NCBI GenBank assembly: GCA_035387745.1
Contig: DAOOON010000008.1
Coordinates: forward strand, 10,037-23,424
Source of the DNA: an archaeon
Lineage (GTDB): Archaea > Iainarchaeota > Iainarchaeia > Iainarchaeales > CSSED10-239
DNA: 13,388 nt
Direction: 5' to 3'
Part shown: positions 2-13,388 of the stretch, piece by piece
How the letters are laid out: each line of letters begins with the position of its first letter
Position numbering within the stretch: position 1 is the stretch's first letter
The notes under the pieces: generated by a model
What the model was told of the DNA's origin: nothing
Seen by the model: the letters and a program-made list of their open reading frames with translations, nothing else
Databases searched by the model: none
Translations under genes and position numbers: made by a program

Positions 2-84
2 GCAGAGGTGGCGGAGTGGTCAAACGCGCTAGCCTGCTAAGCTAGAGTCGAAAGACTACATGGGTTCAAATCCCATCCTCTGCG
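2..84 (+). tRNA. tRNA-Ser, anticodon GCU, class II (long variable arm), CCA not encoded
   Basis: Cloverleaf read by hand. Acceptor gcagagg (2-8) pairs with cctctgc (77-83), discriminator G84. D-stem gcg/cgc with loop gagtggtcaaa. Anticodon stem ctagc (29-33)/gctag (41-45), loop ctGCTaa, anticodon 36-38. Variable arm gtc-gaaa-gac. T-arm atggg-ttcaaat-cccat. A T-run (cttttt) follows directly. Confidence 0.93.
31..71. repeat. Left copy of a 41-bp perfect direct repeat (att-like), inside tRNA-Ser from the anticodon stem to the T-loop
   Basis: agcctgctaagctagagtcgaaagactacatgggttcaaat is identical at 31-71 and 911-951. Partial identity continues upstream (caaac at 21-25 and 901-905). Confidence 0.9.
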
Positions 85-324
85 CTTTTTATTCAAGTAA
101 GCATTTTGTTGTAAGTGAGCTTGTAGAGTGGATTAAAGGGAAGGACTTTGCTCACGACTACGAGACAGGACTAATTTCTAATATTTCTAGATTATTGTTG
201 AATAACGATAAAAGTATATATTTTTATTTTTCTAAGTGTATCTATTGTATGTTGTGTATGGTTAAATGGGATAGCAAGATATTTAAAGAGTTTTAGTCAG
301 TTAATAATATTTCGTGGTGGTAAT

Positions 325-2947: not shown

Positions 2948-3142
2948 ATGTTTGAATGTATTAATAAGAAAATAAAAAAATATACCTGGAGACAAATTGC
3001 TTGTATTAAGCTTTCTGTTCTTTTCTTTACCTTAATGATTGCTAAGCTTTGGCCAGGAATCTTAGGGCTTAATTGGTATGTCTATATGATATTAGCAATA
3101 ATCTTTATGATTAGACCAATGATTATGCTTTTAAAAAAGTAG
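2948..3142 (+). CDS. Small 2-TM membrane protein (64 aa from the ATG)
   Basis: The track ORF starts at GTG 2939. However, AGGTGA (2936-2941) sits 6 nt before the in-frame ATG at 2948, so I prefer the ATG. Two hydrophobic helices and a KK tail. Confidence 0.5.
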   Translation: MFECINKKIKKYTWRQIACIKLSVLFFTLMIAKLWPGILGLNWYVYMILAIIFMIRPMIMLLKK

Positions 3143-3211
3143 TTTTTCAAATAAAATATCTTTAAATATATAATGTATAATTATATTGATACAAGAAAAA
3201 AAGGAGTAATT

Positions 3212-3472
3212 ATGTTAAAAAAAAAACAAGATTCTGATAAAATATTACAAGAAACCATCTATGGAACTGGCGGCATACCAAAAGAAGAACCAGGAGCAGT
3301 AACTGTTGGGAAAAGTAAAAGAAGAAGAAATGAACAAAACTTTTTTCAAAAGATCGTGAGCCCAAGAAAGATAGTTAGAGAAGAACACAAAGAGAAAAAG
3401 CCAGGCTTCTTTTCAAATCTATTTGGTCCAAAGTTTAAGAGAAGAAAAGGCAAAGGACTAGATGGTTTTTAG
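3212..3472 (+). CDS. Small, highly basic Lys/Arg-rich protein (86 aa), unknown function
   Basis: AAGGAG at 3201-3206 precedes ATG 3212, which I prefer over the track start at 3173. Its stop TAG abuts the next ATG (TAGATG at 3470-3475). Contains KSKRRRN and KFKRRKGKG clusters. Confidence 0.5.
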   Translation: MLKKKQDSDKILQETIYGTGGIPKEEPGAVTVGKSKRRRNEQNFFQKIVSPRKIVREEHKEKKPGFFSNLFGPKFKRRKGKGLDGF

Positions 3473-3844
3473 ATGACCAAAATAAACAAATTTATTTATT
3501 GGACACCAAGGATATTATCTATTCTTTTTATACTTTTTTTAGCCCTGTTTTCTTTAGATGTTATTACACCTGAAGCTAGCCTTAGTGAAATAATTATTGG
3601 TTTATTTATGCACAATATTCCGGTGTTTATTCTTACAGCAATACTTATAATTTCCTGGAAAAAAGAAATAGTTGGTGGCGTTATTTTTTGTCTTGCAGGG
3701 TTACTTTATCTTGTTAATGTTGTGATAACAATAATTAGAACCCCCCCTTTTGTGTGGCAGTATATCATTCCCATTTTATTGATTTCCGGGCCTGCTTTTC
3801 TTATTGGAATTTTATTTTTAATTGGCTGGTTTCAAAAGAAATAG
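3473..3844 (+). CDS. 4-TM membrane protein (123 aa), unknown family
   Basis: Its start abuts the preceding stop. It has four clear hydrophobic segments. Confidence 0.6.
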   Translation: MTKINKFIYWTPRILSILFILFLALFSLDVITPEASLSEIIIGLFMHNIPVFILTAILIISWKKEIVGGVIFCLAGLLYLVNVVITIIRTPPFVWQYIIPILLISGPAFLIGILFLIGWFQKK

Positions 3845-3847
3845 ATT

Positions 3848-5536
3848 TTAAGTTAATCTGTTATCTGGTGTTTCTGTAATTTCAAAGAAATTATTTAACT
3901 TATTATATAAGCAAGCAGTAATGGTTAGGCAATCGCTATTAGTTATACTCTCAATATCAGAATAACTTATATTTTTTTGGAAATAATCATTTAGTAAATC
4001 TGTGCCAATTTCAGGAATTATTGGAGTATACGATGGGTTATTATTTTGTATTTCTTGGTAAGCGTCTACTTTATCTTGTTGTTTTTGAAGTGATTTTTCT
4101 CGTTTTTCTTGTTCTAATTTATCTTGTTTTCTTTTATTTATAACAGCTGGTAATAATTCATTTATTTCATTACCTGATTTAGTAATCACGTTTCCAGAAA
4201 ATCCAAACATCTCTCTACATTCAAATTCAGTATCTTGATCTCCAATCCAAACTCTAAAATAACCTCCGTCTCCCCAGTGATCGCCAAAGCTATTTTTTAT
4301 AATCCAATATTCTTTGTTTCTTATTTTTTCTGTGCCCCAGCCAACCAGAAATAGTGCGTGGCCCATTGGTTCTGTATTTTTTTCAGAATTCAGTTTTTCC
4401 CACACCCCATGACCTGTAAACATCATTGAATCATAAAAGGCCATAGAAATAGCAACCGGCGTATGTTTTAATGCCTCTTTTATATTTTTTACAGTTTTTG
4501 AATTCTTTTTTTTGCAGTCAGTATTTTCAATTTCAATATAATTTTCTATAAAATATTTTGTCAAATTTTCTTGTTTTTTAGGAACAGTATATTTATATCT
4601 TACTGGGCTATCTAAACTGTCGTTATCCGATCCATCAGGACAGAGTTTACTATTTATTTCTGATGACGTAAATAATTCACTTATTGGAGAAATATTCATT
4701 CCACTCTTAGGAGTTTTAGATTTTTCTAATTTAATGATTTCACAAGAGTCGTAACTTACATATTTTAATTGTTCTTCTAATGGAACACCTAAAGGCACTT
4801 CTCCTACAGCTAAACTCAATTGTGTCTTTGTTATAAGCTTCCTTTTGGAATTTAATTTGTTGCTGTTGTTAAGTTCTGTATTTATTTTTTCTTTAAAATA
4901 GTTGTTTATATTTTGTGGGCTATATCCAGCCAAGGTTAATAAATTAATATAATACATAGAAATTTCCCCGCCGCACCCCATAAAACTACTATATGAGATA
5001 AGATACTGTTCTGATAAATTAATTCTTTTAGAACCAGTATAATTTAATTTTCTATTAATGTATCCCTCCATTGCACCCAATATTGAAAACGCTTTACAAG
5101 AACCGCAACTAATCTGTTCTTTTCCTGGAGTAATGTATTCTTTCCAATTTATTTCATCATTATATTCGTAAACCATCGGAGAAATAACTGCATCCGTTAA
5201 TAAAAAAAATCCTGTGTTTCCGGTTTTTTCTTTTTTTTGAGAATTAATGTCATCAGTATTTTGATTTTCAGGAAAAAATTCGTTTACATTGTCTATATTA
5301 AATATTTGTTTGTCGTTTGTATTGTATTCAGGGAATTCATAACCTAAAGGGATATTTAATATTTCGTCCGAATAATCTTTAGCAACCCAAGATGCGTTTT
5401 GTGCTCTTAATTGTTCATTAATAAGATCTGCACGCGTTGGGGTTTTATTTATAGAATAAACAGAGGCGAATATAAATACTCCGATAATTATTATTGTAAT
5501 AATTATTGCAAATATTGTGTTTCTTTTTTTGTTCAT
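3848..5536 (-). CDS. Membrane-anchored papain-like cysteine protease (peptidase family C1) with a large internal insertion and a C-terminal extension
   Basis: N-terminal TM anchor (residues ~8-27). The papain signature is present: QISCGSC-KAFS (Gln141, catalytic Cys147 at nt 5096-5098), GHALFLVGWG (His393 at nt 4358-4360) and YWIIKNSFGDHWGDGGYF (Asn415 at nt 4292-4294). A tttttatatatta TATA-like box lies ~20-30 nt upstream of the ATG. Confidence 0.85.
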   Translation of the reverse strand: MNKKRNTIFAIIITIIIIGVFIFASVYSINKTPTRADLINEQLRAQNASWVAKDYSDEILNIPLGYEFPEYNTNDKQIFNIDNVNEFFPENQNTDDINSQKKEKTGNTGFFLLTDAVISPMVYEYNDEINWKEYITPGKEQISCGSCKAFSILGAMEGYINRKLNYTGSKRINLSEQYLISYSSFMGCGGEISMYYINLLTLAGYSPQNINNYFKEKINTELNNSNKLNSKRKLITKTQLSLAVGEVPLGVPLEEQLKYVSYDSCEIIKLEKSKTPKSGMNISPISELFTSSEINSKLCPDGSDNDSLDSPVRYKYTVPKKQENLTKYFIENYIEIENTDCKKKNSKTVKNIKEALKHTPVAISMAFYDSMMFTGHGVWEKLNSEKNTEPMGHALFLVGWGTEKIRNKEYWIIKNSFGDHWGDGGYFRVWIGDQDTEFECREMFGFSGNVITKSGNEINELLPAVINKRKQDKLEQEKREKSLQKQQDKVDAYQEIQNNNPSYTPIIPEIGTDLLNDYFQKNISYSDIESITNSDCLTITACLYNKLNNFFEITETPDNRLT

Positions 5537-5701: not shown

Positions 5702-5705
5702 TCAT

Positions 5706-5787
5706 GCTAGGGTTTCCGAGCGGTCAAAGGAGCCAGACTCAAGATCTGGTGCTTAGTGCTTCGCAGGTTCGAATCCTGCCCTTAGCA
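5706..5787 (+). tRNA. tRNA-Leu, anticodon CAA, class II, CCA not encoded
   Basis: Acceptor gctaggg (5706-5712) pairs with ccttagc (5780-5786), including one G-U; discriminator A5787. D region ccgagcggtcaaagg. Anticodon stem ccaga/tctgg with loop ctCAAga (anticodon 5740-5742). Long variable arm. T-arm gcagg-ttcgaat-cctgc. Confidence 0.92.
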
Positions 5788-5803
5788 TTTAACTTTTATT
5801 AAG

Positions 5804-6801: not shown

Positions 6802-7671
6802 TTATTTTTTCTTAAAAACTTCGCCAAGAAATATTTTATTGCTTACGCCATACTTCTTTATTTCAATATATCCTTTGTCCGAAAGCTTTTTAATGTTTCT
6901 GGAAACCGTGCCTTTTGGCAAAAAGCTTTTAGCAGTTATTGTTTTTTGAGTCTGCCCTTCATTTTCCATAATTACTTTAATTATCTTTTGCTCGTTTTCA
7001 TTAAGTCCTAAAAGCAAATCTTCTTTTTCAGAAACTTTTATTTTGGTTTTCTTCTTTGGTTTTTTCTTTAAAATTAAATGTATTCCAAAGACTATTGCCA
7101 ATAAAATAACTAAAATAATTAAATAGTTGTTTTCTGAGGTTTTTGATGATAATTCATAATTAATACTAATGTTTTTTATATCAAAAAGAGAAACAACCAT
7201 TTGCCCATTAATTACTTCTGCTGAAGATATCAATGGTAATTCATTTACTTTTGCAGATTTTGGCAAGGTGATCTTAAGCTCATCAATTGTTTCTTTATAT
7301 TTGGAGTTATAAATTAATGTCCAAAGTCCATTTGATTTACTAGTATAATAATCAGTTAAATATATGATTTCTATATTCATTTTTTCTAAATTTTTAATAT
7401 TGTCATTAAGATTAATTGTTAAAGAATTTAAGTTATAAGAAATAGAATCTGTTTTTTGATTATTAATTTTAACAATAAGATCATAGCAAGGGACAATGTC
7501 AAAGACAAGTTGGCTTTGATTAACATCTGACAAAATTAGATTGTCTTTTATTTTATAAGTATCAAATTCATAATGATTTATTTCGGTTTGTTGATAATCT
7601 GTGGTTTGTGCGAAATTATAATTAAGTATTATTAAAAAAATAAAAATCGGCAATATTTTTTTAAAATTCAT
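6802..7671 (-). CDS. Transmembrane one-component regulator: signal peptide, ~160-aa extracytoplasmic domain, TM, cytoplasmic winged helix-turn-helix (MarR/TrmB-like, archaeal COG2512-type architecture)
   Basis: Residues 1-21 look like a signal peptide. The TM is YLIILVILLAIVFGIHLIL (183-201), followed by KKKPKKKTK. The wHTH reads LNENEQKIIKVIMENEGQTQKTITAKSFLPKGTVSRNIKKLSDKGYIEIKKYG (about nt 6805-7029). Confidence 0.75.
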   Translation of the reverse strand: MNFKKILPIFIFLIILNYNFAQTTDYQQTEINHYEFDTYKIKDNLILSDVNQSQLVFDIVPCYDLIVKINNQKTDSISYNLNSLTINLNDNIKNLEKMNIEIIYLTDYYTSKSNGLWTLIYNSKYKETIDELKITLPKSAKVNELPLISSAEVINGQMVVSLFDIKNISINYELSSKTSENNYLIILVILLAIVFGIHLILKKKPKKKTKIKVSEKEDLLLGLNENEQKIIKVIMENEGQTQKTITAKSFLPKGTVSRNIKKLSDKGYIEIKKYGVSNKIFLGEVFKKK

Positions 7672-7723
7672 AATTATTCAATAATATTATATTGCAATTA
7701 GTTATTTAAATTTACTTATTGAT

Positions 7724-7740
7724 AAAAAAATAAGAAAAAA
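7724..7740 (-). terminator. Oligo-T tracts (T6 and T7 on the minus strand) just downstream of the 615-aa gene stop; archaeal-style terminator candidate
   Basis: The plus strand reads aaaaaaataagaaaaaa at 7724-7740. On the coding (minus) strand this gives TTTTTT and TTTTTTT starting 5 nt after the stop at 7746-7748. Confidence 0.35.
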
Positions 7741-7745
7741 GGAAA

Positions 7746-9593
7746 TTATTCAATAATTTCCTTAGTTGCAGAGATTCTTTTTTCTGTAATTTTTTCGCCA
7801 ATAGGTATAAACCAAAGAAGTTTCCTTTGTTCTTTAACTTCAAAAACATATGTTGGAATCTCTGAAACAGTTTCTAGATTTATGTCTCCAACCACTTTTG
7901 AAATATCAATTTTGTTTTCTTGAAGCATTTGTGTAACAGGCATTATCTTTTTTACTTTATTGTCTTTAGTTACATATATTTCATCACTGTTTTTTACAGT
8001 TAGTTGTTTAGAATTTAGTGATTTTGTTTCAAGTGTTGAATTTGTATTTATAGATTCTATATTTTCATAGTTTATATCTGTAACTTCTGAGTTGAGGTTC
8101 TTATTTTTAACTTGTATTTGTTTTTGGGCCCTGGCATTTTCGGCTATTAGATTTGAGTTGTCTGAATCAACAATTAGATATCTTATTATGCCGGAGTTTA
8201 TACCCGTAAGTTTTTCTCCAGTTTTTGAGTCTATTGTAACTTCAAATTTAAGGGGAGTATCTATTCCACAAGAATTTACAAAGCCATCCATGTTATCTAA
8301 TGCAAATTCTTTAGAATCGTTTCCTTTAACATAACTAATTTTTCCTACAAACAGATTTTCTTTTGTTGAGCTTTTAAATAATTTTCTAGTAAAACAAGCG
8401 TTTTGATTATATTCGTTATAGAAATTTATTGTGGCAGTTTCAATTTCTGAAAAATTATTTTTTTCGGTTAATATTGTTAAATCAAGGTAATATCCTTCAT
8501 TTTTCTTTAAATGATGGGTTTTTGTTTCTGCATTAAAATAAGAACTAGAATTACAAATAGTCTTGTATTGTCCAGTATAGTTTGGGTCTATTTTTGCAGG
8601 CAATATTATCTTTGTTTTATCAATTGCACAAGGTATCTCTAGTTTATATGTATATTTAGAATCTGTTTGAGGGAGTGGTTTATCAGTAATTTTAACTGCA
8701 ATATCTGCATAATTACTAAAACTTATATAATCAGAATTGTCTGTAGTTGAAAGAGTTTCTTTATCTAATGTTATTCTTGAGCTATAAACAGTATTAACTT
8801 TTAGATTTGTATTTAAATAATTTTCAAAGATATTGTCTCCGCTTTCATAGGTTTCAATTGCATTTAAATTATTACCACTTATACTAATAGTTACTTCGTG
8901 TTTTAATCCAGGAGGTGTTGTGTTTGCTTTAATCTCTTTAATAGTTAAGGTATATCCGTCAATATCAAAGGCATCTCCAACCTTATAGACTGTCGTTTGT
9001 ATATTTCTGGAATTTATTTTTGCCCATTCTCCTATAGTTAAAGTATAGTTTTTTGGTTTTTCATTATAAGTGCTTGAAACCCTTTCTATTTCTTTAAAAA
9101 CCTCTGAATCAATTATATAAGAATAAGTATATTTATATTTCTCTTGTCCAGATTCTGATTCTGTAATAGATAATTTAAGATCTTTAATTACTTCATTATG
9201 ATTGTAATACGCGCCTAAAGGCATTAGTGTGTTTTGAGAATTTATTGCATTTACAACTAGAGATGAACCGATGTCTGCGATATTAGAAATATCTTTAGAA
9301 GCAGTAAAATATATATTTATCCTATATTCATTATTTGGATTAAGATATATTGGATTTTCGGAATTATCATATATTGGGCTCTGTGCTAGTACCTTTCCTG
9401 TGCTTAAATCAATTAATTCTTTATATGCGCCGGTTATTGTAACTGGAGAATTTAAATTATTAAATTTTATTTCTCGAGATTGTCCTTCATATATAGAATA
9501 ATATTCTGCAAACAACCTAGGGGATGTTGCGATAAGGAATATAGTTATTGCAAATATTGCAACTATAAAGTTTATTGTTTTTTTTATTTTCAT
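7746..9593 (-). CDS. Large secreted or surface protein (615 aa), beta-rich, Asn/Ser/Thr-rich, unknown family; possible PepSY-like C-terminal motif
   Basis: GGAGG lies 7 nt upstream of the ATG. The signal peptide is MKIKKTINFIVAIFAITIFLIATSPRLFA/EYY. There are no further TM segments. The C-terminus YVFEVKEQRKLLWFIPIGEKITEKRISATKEII loosely resembles PepSY. Confidence 0.7.
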   Translation of the reverse strand: MKIKKTINFIVAIFAITIFLIATSPRLFAEYYSIYEGQSREIKFNNLNSPVTITGAYKELIDLSTGKVLAQSPIYDNSENPIYLNPNNEYRINIYFTASKDISNIADIGSSLVVNAINSQNTLMPLGAYYNHNEVIKDLKLSITESESGQEKYKYTYSYIIDSEVFKEIERVSSTYNEKPKNYTLTIGEWAKINSRNIQTTVYKVGDAFDIDGYTLTIKEIKANTTPPGLKHEVTISISGNNLNAIETYESGDNIFENYLNTNLKVNTVYSSRITLDKETLSTTDNSDYISFSNYADIAVKITDKPLPQTDSKYTYKLEIPCAIDKTKIILPAKIDPNYTGQYKTICNSSSYFNAETKTHHLKKNEGYYLDLTILTEKNNFSEIETATINFYNEYNQNACFTRKLFKSSTKENLFVGKISYVKGNDSKEFALDNMDGFVNSCGIDTPLKFEVTIDSKTGEKLTGINSGIIRYLIVDSDNSNLIAENARAQKQIQVKNKNLNSEVTDINYENIESINTNSTLETKSLNSKQLTVKNSDEIYVTKDNKVKKIMPVTQMLQENKIDISKVVGDINLETVSEIPTYVFEVKEQRKLLWFIPIGEKITEKRISATKEIIE

Positions 9594-9608
9594 GTTTTTG
9601 CCTCCAAT

Positions 9609-9728
9609 TTATTTTACAAATCTTATTTTAAATAATGTAAATATCAATGTACCAAGAATAGCAAGGTAAACAAAAACTGCAAATATATATTGTCTTAATT
9701 TCTTTGCTGGACAACTTAATTTCTTCAT
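9609..9728 (-). CDS. 39-aa single-TM micro-protein, first gene upstream of the 615-aa secreted protein (not in the supplied ORF track)
   Basis: My own translation is MKKLSCPAKKLRQYIFAVFVYLAILGTLIFTLFKIRFVK*. GAGGTGA lies 7 nt upstream of the ATG (9726-9728). Its stop at 9609-9611 is 15 nt from the next ATG, and that gap contains the next gene's GGAGG. Confidence 0.5.
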   Translation of the reverse strand: MKKLSCPAKKLRQYIFAVFVYLAILGTLIFTLFKIRFVK

Positions 9729-9811
9729 TTTTATTTCACCTCGCTTTTTTTGGAATAGGGGATTAAAATGTGGCTAAGTAAATAGCACATTATAAGTAAC
9801 TCTTGTTTTTT

Positions 9812-9870
9812 AGTATTTAAATACTTTTAGTGAAACTAGGCGAAACTTATAGAAAATTACTGAAATTTTT
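9812..9870. promoter_or_regulatory. Candidate operator array in the divergent control region: a 14-bp perfect palindrome plus four 10-bp-phased NGAAA repeats
   Basis: agtatttaaatact (9812-9825) is a perfect palindrome with a TTTAAA core. It is followed by tgaaactagg / cgaaacttat / agaaaattac / tgaaattttt at 9831, 9841, 9851 and 9861. The same register recurs at 9891 (tgaaaag) and 9951 (tgaaat). Confidence 0.35.
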
Positions 9871-9949
9871 CAGGATTTAAAGGTAATTTGTGAAAAGTTT
9901 ATATATTTTTAGATGTAATATATTATATGTATAAAAAAGTGAAGAATTT

Positions 9950-12900
9950 ATGAAATATTCAAAAATAATATTAATTTGTATAATTTTCTTAATCTTGCCA
10001 TTTATATTTGCAGAAGAAGAAAGTGCCTCTGTAGTTGTGCCTTTGGCAATAAATGGAATAGAAGGAGAATTAGATATTTCAACAACCCCCTTAATTTTTC
10101 CAGAAACAGAACAAGATGAATCTTCAGACACCATAAATATTTTTACATCTATTGACAACAATTTAGGGTTTTCTCTTAATACACAACTAAATTATAAAAC
10201 ACTTGATATCCCTTATTATTTTTTAAAAGAAAATCAAAATCTTAAAAAAAGGATATATCCTTTTAATCAAGGCAGAACATATGTAATAAATAATTCCTCT
10301 CAGGAAATTACAAAAGACAAAACTCTAGAACTAAAATTAAATTTATCAGATACTACTCAAACCGTATATTTAGTTATTGATAATTTGCAGTCTAGCCAGA
10401 TACCAGAAATGAACCGATTTGTAAATGTCACATCTTCAACAATTGAAATAAATTCTGTTCCAAGATATCTTAAAATAAACAAAAGTGCCATTGCAAATAA
10501 TAAATTACTTTTAAATTTAAAAGCAAATATTACTAATTTTTCTTTTCAGATCATAGAAACAGATAATAACAAGAACGTAAACGGAATGTATAGTACAAAT
10601 ATTTTACAACTAGATTACGATTCTTTTAACAAATACGCTTTGTTTCAAATTAATCGTAACATTATAGAATTTTATTGCCCGTATTGTCATCTTAAAGACT
10701 ACGGAATTAATGAAAATGGCTTTTCTGCATGTGGGAAATCTGTCTTTGAAGAAGAAAAAAAGCCAATAACAGAATATTTGAGCGCCAAAGAAAATGTTTG
10801 TCTTTTGCCAGATGGTTCTAAAATTTCTGGCTTTACTAATGATTCTTTGGAAGTATTTGGTTTAGACAGATTGTATTTTGAATGGAATGACAAAATCCCC
10901 TCTGATCTTTTTGATTATGGAGAATATTATGTTGATCAAGACCAGTTTAGAATTGCGGTTTCAAAAAAGATAGACGCAATTACTAATAATAACTATATTG
11001 AAATAGGAAATATAAAATATAAGAAAGGCAAAAACAACTTAATTTCAAAAGCAGGAGTCTATATTGAACAAGACTTATCTAAAATAACTGATTTATCCAC
11101 TAATAATTCAATAATAGAATCTTTGGAATTTTCTATCGCGGTATTAAACTCTATTCCGGAAGAATATAGAAAATTAACCATTTTAGACTTAACAAATAAT
11201 GAGCCAGACGTTAGTGATTCAGAATTTAATAGATTGCTGCAAGAGATTTTAGGTGGTAATTATTATAAATTTACAGATTATCACACCCACCATCAAATAA
11301 CACTAGAAAAATATCTCTCTTCTATTAATAATTTTAAAGTTTCTAGAGTAAATAACGATATTTATTCTAAACTATTATATGGCTTAGAATACAAAACACA
11401 AGGTTATTCTAATATTTATTATTCTGAAGGGCTGAATTATTTTATATATAATATTAAACCATTTACAGAAGAAACAACCGGAATACTAAATAACGAACAC
11501 ACACAAATGTTTGGTAATTATTGGAAACTAAATTTAATAGATTTAAATAATACAATAGAACCAAAAACAGTAGTAGTAAATGTTTCAGAAATAACCCCTG
11601 AAAGTAAAAGAGCAAAAATAATTTTCAATAATCCTTCAACAAATTTATATGTAAATTATTATTTTGAAAATCAATATTTTTCTAGTAATCCATTATTTTT
11701 AAAAACAATAAATGCATTAAGTTATAATCGAGGCAATATTTTTGAAAATACCTCTTCTTTTACGTCTAAGCTTCCAGAAGTTATTCAGAACTATAATAAT
11801 CTACAAGATGGTTATATTGTTTCTATTGATTCTGTACATTCTGATTTTATAATTAATTTAACAAAACCAGTAATAATCACTAAAGGTGCAGGAGAAGAAA
11901 TTCTGGTTAAATATTATAATGGCAGAGAATATGTTAATTATACAAACAACCTCACAACTATAAATAACTCAAGAGAGGATTTCGCAACAAAAGAAACGCT
12001 TGTAATATACCCTCCAAAATCAGAAAATACAAATTATCCAATAATAATAGAATCACAAAGCCCTTTAATCTTTAATAGTGAGGTTTTTGAAAGCACAGAA
12101 AATGGAAAACACATATATAGATTAAATAAGGAAAATCAAAATTTAAGATTTCTTGAACTAATAAATGACGTATACAATAACGAAGCGTGCTTTTCAATTT
12201 CTGAAAACCAATTTTCGTTATGGAAAAATATAGACGAGGAATTGGATATTAAAAAGGCAGAGAGCTATTTGGAATTTGCAAGTGCTTTACAATATAATGT
12301 TGGCGAGTCTTTAGAGAATCAAATATCTCAAAATCAAAATTCACAACCAAACAATTCTTTTGCAGTATACACAATTGATGAGTCTCAAACACTATATAAA
12401 AATGCACAAGCAGTTAATACTTTTATTAAGACAGAAACAGATAATAGAAACTTAAACATATTAAAAGACTATAGCGAGGTTTATGAAAAAGCAATAGAAA
12501 GCGAACCAACATTATATAAAGAATTTAGAGATCTATTAAATTGCAATGAAACATTAATCTGTAGAATTTCTAAAACAAGATACACCCCGCAAGGATATTT
12601 TTTTGAGAGATTTAAAAACGTATGTGTTGATAATACTCCAACAGATTGTGTTAGTTTTTGGTCAAATCCAAAAGTGAATTATTGTTCTGCATTTGTTAGA
12701 AATTTTAATAATAATTTCTTTGGATATAGATTTGATTCAGCAGATGCTTGGGATTTAGCTAAACAACCAAATAATAAAAGTATCTGGAAAGCAACAACCG
12801 ATTCATTACAAGAAAAAGATTTTGATTTATTAATTCCCGGGTCAGTTCTTGGAATAAAGCATAATAATACAAGCTATAAAAATAAAGAATATAGCCATGT

Positions 12901-13388
12901 AGTTGTTTATCTTGGAAAAATTGGTTCAAGGCACTATATTATTCATTCTTGGGTAAATACGTTAAAAATAGAAAGATTAGATGTTTTCTTAAAAACTACA
13001 GCAAGAGGGAAAAATGCATATGGCTATTATGAAAATGGTCAAATAAAAGAAGTAATGATTTCAAATAATCTTAATCAAAAACTAATTGCAAAAGCCAGAG
13101 AGAACGGCATCTCTTTAGGGTCTGTGGATTCTTCTATTTATCAAGGCATTATCCCAGATTATATCTTTGATTCATTTAATAATAATAAAATGTTGTTAAC
13201 AAATATTGAAAATCCAAGTAATAATGCCGTATATCAAGAGCTTGAAGAAGTTTATAATAGAATATTACAAAAAGACTTTGATATTTATTATAAGACCAAT
13301 TACTATACAGAAGAATCTCCAGAAATTAACGAGAAAATAAGATTGGATTCTAATGAGCCAATGATTGTAATACTTGGCAAATACAAAA
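9950..13388 (+). CDS. Giant secreted protein, 5'-complete and 3'-truncated by the window end (>=1146 aa), with an NlpC/P60-like papain-fold Cys peptidase/amidase domain near residues ~900-1010
   Basis: I translated the frame from ATG 9950 and found it open to the window end. It is absent from the ORF track because it has no stop in the window. The signal peptide is MKYSKIILICIIFLILPFIFA/EEE. NlpC/P60 motifs: NYCSAFV (Cys912, nt 12683-12685), LIPGSVLG, YSHVVVYLG (His983, nt 12896-12898) and YIIHSW (His999, nt 12944-12946). Many N-x-S/T sequons are present. Confidence 0.85.
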   Translation, partial: MKYSKIILICIIFLILPFIFAEEESASVVVPLAINGIEGELDISTTPLIFPETEQDESSDTINIFTSIDNNLGFSLNTQLNYKTLDIPYYFLKENQNLKKRIYPFNQGRTYVINNSSQEITKDKTLELKLNLSDTTQTVYLVIDNLQSSQIPEMNRFVNVTSSTIEINSVPRYLKINKSAIANNKLLLNLKANITNFSFQIIETDNNKNVNGMYSTNILQLDYDSFNKYALFQINRNIIEFYCPYCHLKDYGINENGFSACGKSVFEEEKKPITEYLSAKENVCLLPDGSKISGFTNDSLEVFGLDRLYFEWNDKIPSDLFDYGEYYVDQDQFRIAVSKKIDAITNNNYIEIGNIKYKKGKNNLISKAGVYIEQDLSKITDLSTNNSIIESLEFSIAVLNSIPEEYRKLTILDLTNNEPDVSDSEFNRLLQEILGGNYYKFTDYHTHHQITLEKYLSSINNFKVSRVNNDIYSKLLYGLEYKTQGYSNIYYSEGLNYFIYNIKPFTEETTGILNNEHTQMFGNYWKLNLIDLNNTIEPKTVVVNVSEITPESKRAKIIFNNPSTNLYVNYYFENQYFSSNPLFLKTINALSYNRGNIFENTSSFTSKLPEVIQNYNNLQDGYIVSIDSVHSDFIINLTKPVIITKGAGEEILVKYYNGREYVNYTNNLTTINNSREDFATKETLVIYPPKSENTNYPIIIESQSPLIFNSEVFESTENGKHIYRLNKENQNLRFLELINDVYNNEACFSISENQFSLWKNIDEELDIKKAESYLEFASALQYNVGESLENQISQNQNSQPNNSFAVYTIDESQTLYKNAQAVNTFIKTETDNRNLNILKDYSEVYEKAIESEPTLYKEFRDLLNCNETLICRISKTRYTPQGYFFERFKNVCVDNTPTDCVSFWSNPKVNYCSAFVRNFNNNFFGYRFDSADAWDLAKQPNNKSIWKATTDSLQEKDFDLLIPGSVLGIKHNNTSYKNKEYSHVVVYLGKIGSRHYIIHSWVNTLKIERLDVFLKTTARGKNAYGYYENGQIKEVMISNNLNQKLIAKARENGISLGSVDSSIYQGIIPDYIFDSFNNNKMLLTNIENPSNNAVYQELEEVYNRILQKDFDIYYKTNYYTEESPEINEKIRLDSNEPMIVILGKYK

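Follow-up and report, generated by a model that had tools for sequence, protein, structure and literature searches.

The open reading frame and its full-length orthologue

The window analysed here is a stretch of 13,388 nucleotides from an archaeal contig (DAOOON010000008.1), whose right-hand end carries the 5' part of a giant gene for a multi-domain protein with a papain-like Cys-His-His domain. From its ATG, frame 1 of the plus strand stays open for 1146 codons up to the last base of the window (Table 1). The region has ∼27% G+C, so that one stop is expected per ∼11 codons; a stop-free run of this length has a chance probability of ∼2e-47 under the local base composition, and none of the remaining five frames stays open beyond 83 codons. 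The ATG at 9950 is the first start 3' of an in-frame stop at 9932, and Met1 is at least 90% conserved among the homologues. The original prediction, made from the nucleotide sequence, of a frame of at least 1146 amino acids (aa) truncated by the window is thus borne out. An open reading frame (ORF) listing also confirmed that the gene is missing from such a track because its frame has no stop before the window end.

A search of 5.8 billion proteins returned 16 homologues (P0001-P0016) with 42-99% identity. The full-length ones have 1561-1947 aa, and the 15 besides P0001 span 908-1947 aa. P0001 (1561 aa) is 99% identical to the window protein and differs from it at 8 of the 1146 positions. Its gene runs uninterrupted on an independent 8.9-kb contig from another sample (L001), which is collinear with positions 7103-13388 of the window at 98.6% DNA identity over 6.3 kb. 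The intact orthologue indicates that the truncation is an assembly or window edge and that the gene is unbroken, contrary to the possibility of an interrupted frame in the true assembly. The open frame accordingly represents aa 1-1146 of 1561, the N-terminal 73% of the protein.

Table 1. Positions of the features of the giant gene, its surroundings and related loci (window coordinates unless a locus is named)
Feature	Position	Strand	Basis or remark
Giant secreted multi-domain hydrolase gene (putative), 5' part (aa 1-1146)	9950..13388	+	open frame; full-length orthologue P0001
Signal peptide or signal anchor (putative), aa 1-21, MKYSKIILICIIFLILPFIFA	9950..10012	+	hydrophobicity
N-terminal region, aa 22-860 (∼840 aa), no recognised fold	10013..12529	+	no family match; best-conserved stretch aa 201-500
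Cys cluster C243-P-Y-C246...C261...C284	10676..10801	+	alignment of 17 sequences
Cys-rich linker, aa 861-902 (Cys865, Cys871, Cys892, Cys900)	12530..12655	+	alignment
Papain-fold Cys-His-His hydrolase domain (predicted), NlpC/P60-CHAP superfamily, aa 903-1042 (∼140 aa)	12656..13075	+	AF2, Foldseek, hhalign
Cys912, proposed nucleophile	12683..12685	+	first residue of helix 1 (10-21) in model; at least 90% conserved
His983, proposed general base	12896..12898	+	first residue of strand 81-89 of model; invariant in 59 sequences
His999, proposed third triad residue	12944..12946	+	strand 92-99 of model; invariant in giant clade
Linker between papain-like and YkuD domains, aa 1043-1135	13076..13354	+	moderately conserved; no family match
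First beta-strand of YkuD domain (probable), aa 1136-1146, EPMIVILGKYK	13355..13387	+	presumed back-extension of the match to aa 1136
Divergent intergenic region	9594..9949	.	between 615-aa secreted-protein gene (-) and giant gene (+); sequence read
TATA-like TTTATATA	9898..9905		45-52 nt 5' of ATG
39-aa ORF	9609..9728	-	within divergent intergenic region
615-aa secreted protein (p615)	7746..9593	-	no family match
289-aa winged-helix protein	6802..7671	-
562-aa C1 peptidase	3848..5536	-	Pfam E = 8e-31
DUF7670 membrane protein	3473..3844	+	Pfam E = 5e-31
99-aa ORF, Lys/Arg-rich	3173..3472	+
tRNA-Ser(GCT)	2..85	+	ARAGORN and Rfam agree
tRNA-Leu(CAA)	5705..5788	+	ARAGORN and Rfam agree
P0001 gene	L001 2847..7532
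HhH-GPD DNA glycosylase	L001 7525..8235	-
GGACT/AIG2 gamma-glutamyl-cyclotransferase-like gene	L001 8365..8787	+
Stand-alone papain-like gene and ∼700-aa partner	L015 6001..8726; L016 6001..8669; L017 6001..8757	same strand	partner transmembrane segment near aa 415-435

The papain-like Cys-His-His domain

An NlpC/P60-like hydrolase domain with Cys912, His983 and His999 as catalytic residues had been predicted towards the end of the open frame, and the three residues were found at these positions (Table 1). Domain libraries do not recognise the segment. The 1146-aa protein gave no Pfam or NCBIfam match for it even at E ≤ 10, none of 16 domain segments matched Pfam NLPC_P60 (PF00877; MEROPS C40) at its threshold, and a domain profile built from the clade alone returned only a spurious ribosomal protein from the PDB. 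Pfam NLPC_P60 recognises one of 68 distant relatives (E = 0.002), and a faint match to Peptidase_C92 was seen in five of 16 members (best E = 0.004).

The placement of the domain comes from its predicted structure and from profile comparison. The AlphaFold (AF2) model built with A4, an alignment of 59 diverse relatives of the papain-like family, reached a predicted local distance difference test (pLDDT) of 93.2 and a predicted template-modelling score (pTM) of 0.88; it replaced an earlier model of aa 860-1060 that was built with 16 close sequences (pLDDT 73, weak Foldseek matches). In its DSSP assignment a helix begins at Cys912, a strand begins at His983, and the next strand listed contains His999 (Table 1). 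The best Foldseek match in the PDB was the E. coli glutathionylspermidine (Gsp) amidase, a CHAP domain (probability 1.00, TMq 0.50). Other matches were the CHAP lysins Ly7917, PlyGRCS and PlyC and the phi812 hub, the amidase Tae2 of type VI secretion systems (T6SS), staphopains and the NlpC/P60 domain 8er5 (template-modelling (TM) scores of 0.46/0.51). Among the viral models of BFVD, the top 15 were phage endolysins or CHAP proteins (probability 0.96-1.00, best E = 2e-3). The top matches in the PDB and BFVD are nearly all of the CHAP/NlpC-P60/staphopain type, with probabilities of 0.9-1.0 and TM scores of ∼0.45-0.52.

Profile-profile alignment (hhalign) of A4 with E. coli MepS/MepH/NlpC/YafL gave a probability of 93.3% (E = 2.7e-7, 87 columns), and with MepS alone 79% (E = 1.6e-5). 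In the alignment with the four enzymes, Cys912 pairs with the Cys of DCSG, His983 with the His of HVG, and His999 with the FxH position (FVH in MepS), all in the same register. When the broad family profile was compared with PDB sequences, the best three matches were Tae2 and two Trichomonas C40 NlpC/P60 peptidases (E = 0.15-0.8), and the His strand of 6biq and 6win was aligned with His983. A CHAP assignment by sequence (PF05257) was rejected, as there is no Pfam CHAP match and hhalign with the E. coli Gss amidase domain gave 5%, over the Cys helix only. The model and the profile alignment thus point to a genuine papain-fold domain of the NlpC/P60-CHAP superfamily with a predicted Cys912-His983-His999 triad. 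The superfamily part of the original prediction therefore stands, whereas membership in Pfam NLPC_P60 is not reached by score; judged by its sequences, the domain is a separate, unclassified family beyond the current libraries.

The conservation pattern agrees with the proposed triad. In the giant clade His995 and His999 are invariant, Cys912 is altered only in P0012 and His983 only in P0006. Over A4, no column but His983 is invariant and Cys912 is conserved in at least 90%, as would be expected of the residues named beforehand; in the distant relatives, position 999 is His in most cases and D/E/Q/N in the rest. The family signature derived from A4 reads C-[SA]-x-[YF]-[AV]-R ... DAW ... PG-x-[IL]-x-G ... 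Y-[ST]-H-V-x-x-Y-[LV]-G ... H, and in the conservation profile the domain is the best-conserved stretch of the giant protein. The median Cys count of the small relatives is one, in most of them the equivalent of Cys912, and the conserved Cys therefore has no disulfide partner there. In the giant protein the domain follows a Cys-rich linker that is poorly modelled (pLDDT <50), in which Cys871 and Cys892 are invariant and Cys865 and Cys900 at least 90% conserved; these four could pair with one another and leave Cys912 free.

YkuD domain and C-terminal modules beyond the window

A second catalytic-type domain lies directly behind the window edge. P0001 matches Pfam YkuD (PF03734), a domain of the L,D-transpeptidase fold, over residues 1150-1300 (E = 2.9e-16, 60.8 bits against a gathering threshold (GA) of 23.4). 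Since the match starts at model position 15, the first YkuD strand probably falls within the last ∼11 codons of the window. PF03734 is found in nearly all full-length homologues, and its active-site motif, H1261...SHGC1277IR (H...S-x-G-C), is preserved in 14 of the 15 homologues extending into the region, where the surrounding stretch is among the best-conserved parts of the giant protein. The profile of the whole family matched only YkuD structures in the PDB, those of B. subtilis YkuD (E = 2.6e-9); matches to JAK2 kinase in that comparison were dismissed as noise. In NCBIfam the best match of the domain is the L,D-carboxypeptidase ElsL (E = 2.5e-24), ahead of transpeptidases, at 86 bits against an equivalog cut-off of 270.

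The C-terminal 230-350 aa of P0001-P0016 are formed by either of two unrelated modules, which alternate even between close orthologues, and this indicates module swapping within the clade. A GH73-like tail is present in P0001, P0002, P0004 and P0009, where Pfam Glucosaminidase (PF01832) reaches 23-27 bits, below its GA of 30.2. Eight homologues carry an 'AQESGT...YGIAQI' tail instead. In P0003 only, the tail matches Phage_lysozyme2 (E = 4e-5), Transglycosylas (0.003) and SLT_4 (0.02). These similarities suggest that the tails are probably glycosidases, of the muramidase or glucosaminidase kind.

The N-terminal region

The sole strongly hydrophobic segment of the protein is aa 1-26 (MKYSKIILICIIFLILPFIFA/EEE), and no C-terminal transmembrane segment is present. 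Three of the four other homologues checked besides P0001 also have the hydrophobic N-terminus, which fits the signal peptide that had been predicted, or a signal anchor, so that cleavage and export of the protein would be expected.

The absence of any recognised family over the following ∼900 residues, likewise anticipated, holds for Pfam, NCBIfam and PDB sequences. The ∼840 aa of the N-terminal region show no internal repeats by self-BLAST and have no solved homologue, and a profile of this region alone retrieved from the 5.8-billion-protein set three known clade members only, in a search whose word index was saturated. The Cys cluster described earlier at around residues 243-294 is a conserved feature, as Cys243, Pro244, Cys246, Cys261 and Cys284 are invariant in 17 sequences; a zinc-ribbon Pfam match at the cluster (E = 0.24) was taken as chance. 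The proposed richness in N-x-S/T sequons did not survive comparison with shuffled sequences. The 21 sequons stand against 18.9 ± 3.8 expected (500 shuffles; 12% Asn), a composition effect, and the protein is therefore not sequon-enriched. It may be conjectured that the N-terminal region is a targeting or adhesion part.

Proposed function of the giant protein

The reading that we favour, with moderate confidence, is that the protein is a secreted multi-activity murein hydrolase of a DPANN-type archaeon and is aimed at bacteria. A chain of ∼1561 residues would be exported with several independent murein enzymes, in the order signal peptide, ∼840 aa for targeting or adhesion, papain-like domain, YkuD domain and muramidase- or glucosaminidase-like tail. 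The papain-like domain would act as an amidase or endopeptidase and cleave an amide bond that lies in the peptide stem or at it, Cys912 being the nucleophile, His983 the base and His999 the orienting residue. The YkuD domain would trim or exchange the L,D bond (between diaminopimelic acid and D-Ala, DAP-D-Ala), and the tail would cleave the glycan. As the producer has no murein, the target would be the wall of a bacterium, which may be host, prey or competitor. The idea of action on another cell, put forward from the papain-like domain, is strengthened by the YkuD domain at the window edge and by the probable glycosidase tail, although substrate and target are still deduced from the domains.

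Several observations weigh against such a function. The papain-like domain has no significant Pfam or PDB-sequence match and no Foldseek match at E ≤ 1e-3. For the tails, neither the comparison of family profiles with the PDB nor hhalign with E. coli FlgJ, EmtA and Slt gave a significant result, and since these stricter tests failed their glycosidase identity is tentative. A recognised murein-binding domain (LysM, SH3b, PG_binding) was not found in Pfam scans of the window protein and its homologues. The papain-like family consists mostly of small stand-alone proteins encoded beside an unrelated ∼700-aa membrane protein, without murein enzymes, and its ancestral substrate therefore need not be murein. 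Finally, key residues are lost in some members. Cys912 is replaced by Ser in P0012, P0017 has no Cys, His983 is replaced by Pro in P0006, and the YkuD Cys by Asn in P0013; these four may be pseudo-enzymes or sequencing errors.

The losses in these four proteins would also agree with a role of the catalytic-looking domains as binding modules, in an adhesin that holds the archaeon to its partner's wall and does no cutting. The very large N-terminal region would suit such an adhesin, and attachment was suggested as one role by Castelle et al. (PMC8204110). We regard this explanation as very unlikely, because neither active site is disrupted in the window protein or in the majority of its homologues, conservation in the papain-like domain and around the YkuD motif is among the highest of the whole protein, and His983 does not vary over 59 diverse relatives, a pattern that favours the hydrolase reading.

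Family distribution and domain partners

A search of 1.84 billion representative proteins with the papain-like profile gave 76 clusters at E ≤ 1e-3 (clusters counted at 50% identity), none of which holds a precomputed Pfam domain. Most members have 150-250 aa, and their match begins shortly ahead of the Cys and stops shortly behind the third His. All named members belong to DPANN, three to Nanoarchaeota and one to Aenigmatarchaeota, and one relative bears the JGI label 'cell wall-associated NlpC family hydrolase'. On Nanoarchaeota contigs from three samples, the gene that comes after a stand-alone papain-like gene (181-196 aa), in the same orientation, encodes a Pfam-less membrane protein of ∼700 aa, and the pair adjoins threonyl-tRNA synthetase (ThrRS) with an archaea-specific editing domain. 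The ∼700-aa partner was considered as a counterpart of the giant's N-terminal region and rejected (hhalign 0.3%).

Larger architectures were seen in three further proteins. P0090 (1153 aa) has an N-terminal region 27% identical over aa 105-760 and ends after the papain-like domain; P0017 combines the papain-like domain with YkuD; and P0034 (3182 aa) has the papain-like domain and, in tandem with it, a canonical NLPC_P60 domain by Pfam (E = 1.5e-23; the two at 2870-2972 and 3065-3151), together with Ig-like, adhesin-type folds of the CarboxypepD_reg, bMG3 and SdrD_B types. These architectures suggest that the N-terminal region and the papain-like domain form a core to which exchangeable wall-lytic tails are joined.

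The predominance of small stand-alone members in Nanoarchaeota/Aenigmatarchaeota, and their conserved pairing with the membrane protein where no murein enzyme is near, raise the alternative that the papain-like domain is a general surface amidase or protease of DPANN with a non-murein substrate, the fusion to YkuD being a secondary specialisation. The substrate could then be the S-layer of an archaeal host, pseudomurein, isopeptide links, or proteins digested for nutrients. The lack of a murein-binding domain in the giant protein and the secreted papain C1 peptidases among its syntenic neighbours are in line with this. To our knowledge, all cultivated DPANN have archaeal hosts, which was counted in the same direction. 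Against it, the domain of the giant clade shares its chain with an intact-site YkuD, a fold essentially of murein chemistry. In P0034 it stands in tandem with canonical NLPC_P60, and in structure it comes nearest to murein amidases and phage lysins. This alternative is accordingly held to be rather unlikely for the giant protein, and a murein-directed hydrolase is preferred.

Conserved locus and archaeal source

All six GTDB loci that encode the giant protein are archaeal metagenome-assembled genomes (MAGs), and the NCBI name of P0016 is 'L,D-transpeptidase [archaeon]'. Together with the named relatives from Nanoarchaeota or Aenigmatarchaeota, this agrees with the archaeal origin assumed in the original prediction. 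The gene belongs to a conserved block, in the order C1 peptidase, GNAT, membrane-tethered winged helix-turn-helix (wHTH), secreted p615, giant gene, HhH-GPD and GGACT. This order is kept down to 42% identity, and housekeeping genes lie around it (aspartyl-tRNA synthetase (AspRS), ThrRS and FtsZ), the linked AspRS being a 424-aa enzyme of the non-discriminating type. Because the block is conserved at a fixed locus among housekeeping genes, the giant gene is vertically inherited in these archaeal MAGs, which would belong to a low-GC, DPANN-like lineage.

Vertical inheritance at a fixed locus among housekeeping genes, with no mobile island, would also be expected if the protein served the archaeon's own envelope. 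A murein- or pseudomurein-like polymer would then be cross-linked by YkuD and remodelled by the papain-like domain, as by MepS and Ldt in E. coli, and MepS-type enzymes and L,D-transpeptidases are indeed housekeeping partners in bacteria. However, neither the 13-kb window nor the examined 20-25-kb flanks contained a murein synthesis gene, and the YkuD domain is nearest to a carboxypeptidase rather than a transpeptidase. A secreted protein of 1561 aa with a non-catalytic head of ∼840 aa is also unlike housekeeping remodelling enzymes. In addition, in the literature found the murein enzymes of DPANN are taken to act on other cells, and murein synthesis by DPANN is not reported (PMC8204110, PMC9723730). 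An own-envelope role is therefore highly improbable, and the bacterial wall is retained as the proposed target.

HhH-GPD and the GGACT gene always lie 3' of the giant gene. The arrangement seen on L001 recurs in L002, L003, L006, L008 and L009, and the stretch of L005 covers HhH-GPD only. NlpC/P60 enzymes typically cleave gamma-glutamyl bonds, and for this reason a functional tie of GGACT to the giant gene is conceivable; the association may equally be plain synteny.

Comparison with known systems

The papain-like domain resembles the NlpC/P60 enzymes MepS/Spr, MepH, NlpC and YafL in its papain-like fold, where a helix starts with the Cys and successive strands carry the His residues, in the order Cys-His-His and in the register of the three residues in the hhalign comparison. 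The third residue varies in both groups, being H/Q/E among the E. coli paralogues. The window family differs from these enzymes in its motifs (C-S-x-[YF]-[AV]-R, DAW, Y-[ST]-H-V-x-x-Y-L-G), in a longer Cys-to-His spacer (71 residues in the window domain), in its occurrence in DPANN archaea and not in bacteria, and in falling below the Pfam threshold. The CHAP amidases (Gsp amidase; Ly7917, PlyC, PlyGRCS, phi812 hub) are the best structural neighbours of the model and have a similar Cys-helix motif, KWQCVEFARRF as against YCSAFVRNF in the window protein, but there is no significant sequence-profile match, and the superpositions give a TM score of ∼0.5 with root-mean-square deviations of 5-8 Å.

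Very large murein-lytic proteins of DPANN have been described before. Castelle et al. (2021, PMC8204110) reported extracellular proteins of up to 3,000 aa that are specific to Pacearchaeota/Woesearchaeota, carry a lytic-transglycosylase domain and were proposed to bind or degrade bacterial walls, and Vigneron et al. (2022, PMC9723730) called Woesearchaeota with GH23 proteins 'vampiristic'. The window protein is like these giants in its great size, its predicted secretion, its source in a small-genome archaeon and its bacterial-type murein enzymes, and the role proposed for them, binding or degrading bacterial walls, is similar. Most window homologues also have the 'AQESGT...GIAQI' tail, with weak lysozyme/SLT-type matches, whereas the window orthologue P0001 has the GH73-like tail. 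The published descriptions name a transglycosylase domain only and no papain-like or YkuD domain. Compared with fam00969 of Castelle et al. (2021), by its description only, the protein has more than 1000 aa, an N-terminal signal and murein enzymes, with the transglycosylase tentative.

Bacteria-killing peptidoglycan hydrolases of archaea were reported recently (PLoS Biol 2025, PMC12352652), and Nanoarchaeota stood out there for the prominence and diversity of such enzymes. They are likewise archaeal, secreted and murein-directed, but they are small, consist of a known catalytic and a known wall-binding domain, and are patchily distributed and plasmid-biased. The window protein, by contrast, is a giant with an unrecognised catalytic family and no recognised binding domain at a vertically inherited locus, and that screen would probably have missed it. 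Enzymes of the YkuD fold can act as hydrolases or effectors, as in ElsL (PMC8649774) and the T6SS effector Tlde1 (PMC9638812). The YkuD domain that follows the window shares their His/Cys site, has ElsL as best NCBIfam match and belongs to a fold that can thus act destructively and not by cross-linking. ElsL, however, is cytoplasmic and Tlde1 is delivered by the T6SS, while here the domain would be one module of a giant exported by a Sec-type route. No indexed paper ties YkuD to DPANN. The concept of a DPANN giant murein-lytic protein is therefore already published, but the domain family and the domain combination are undescribed; the Pfam-less papain-like family, its fusion to YkuD, the swapping of C-terminal tails and the vertically inherited locus were not found in the literature searched.

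A narrower proposal is that the triple-enzyme giant is a device for breaching the host wall, in a DPANN archaeon with a bacterial obligate partner or prey. We know of no cultivated DPANN symbiosis that crosses domains in this way, and the proposal is put forward as possible though on balance doubtful. If it were true, the Pfam-less Cys-His-His family, which occurs across Nanoarchaeota and Aenigmatarchaeota, would be a toolkit enzyme specific to DPANN that opens the envelopes of partners. The evidence on whether any DPANN live on bacteria instead of other archaea is so far genomic only, and the locus offers a concrete, testable candidate: a core, vertically inherited and predicted exported protein with at least two, and probably three, putative murein-directed activities. 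The family also represents an unannotated branch of NlpC/P60-CHAP with ∼76 clusters that has been missed by domain libraries and by published screens for archaeal peptidoglycan hydrolases, and surveys are therefore likely to undercount archaeal wall-lytic potential. As the domain is small (∼140 aa) and confidently modelled, it should be tractable for expression and bond-specificity mapping, and might possibly yield a new lysin activity.

Neighbouring genes and intergenic region

The divergent intergenic region between the giant gene and p615 presumably contains both promoters, and a TATA-like TTTATATA lies upstream of the giant gene's ATG (Table 1). The region also holds a 39-aa ORF with one hydrophobic, potentially transmembrane helix (MKKLSCPAKKLRQYIFAVFVYLAILGTLIFTLFKIRFVK). 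An antisense ORF across the gene start (9877-10161, 94 aa, TTG start) was set aside as an AT-rich by-product. The divergently transcribed p615 is kept in relatives in its C-terminal half only (aa ∼295-615), their versions having ∼340 aa.

The 289-aa protein has an N-terminal signal, an outside domain of ∼180 aa, one transmembrane helix and a C-terminal winged helix of the HTH_24/TrmB type, with weak similarity to Sta1/Lrs14. Its gene always adjoins the p615 gene and the giant gene, and from its domains it looks like a membrane-tethered regulator. The exported 562-aa protein is a papain-family C1 peptidase whose Pfam match is split in two stretches. All related MAG loci have its gene in synteny, and a 142-kb relative has a second one of 724 aa; the C1 peptidases may be part of a secreted digestive set. 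The very basic 99-aa ORF abuts the downstream gene of the DUF7670 membrane protein. Of the two tRNA genes, that for tRNA-Ser(GCT) is found right where the window begins, and that for tRNA-Leu(CAA) between those of the C1 peptidase and GNAT.

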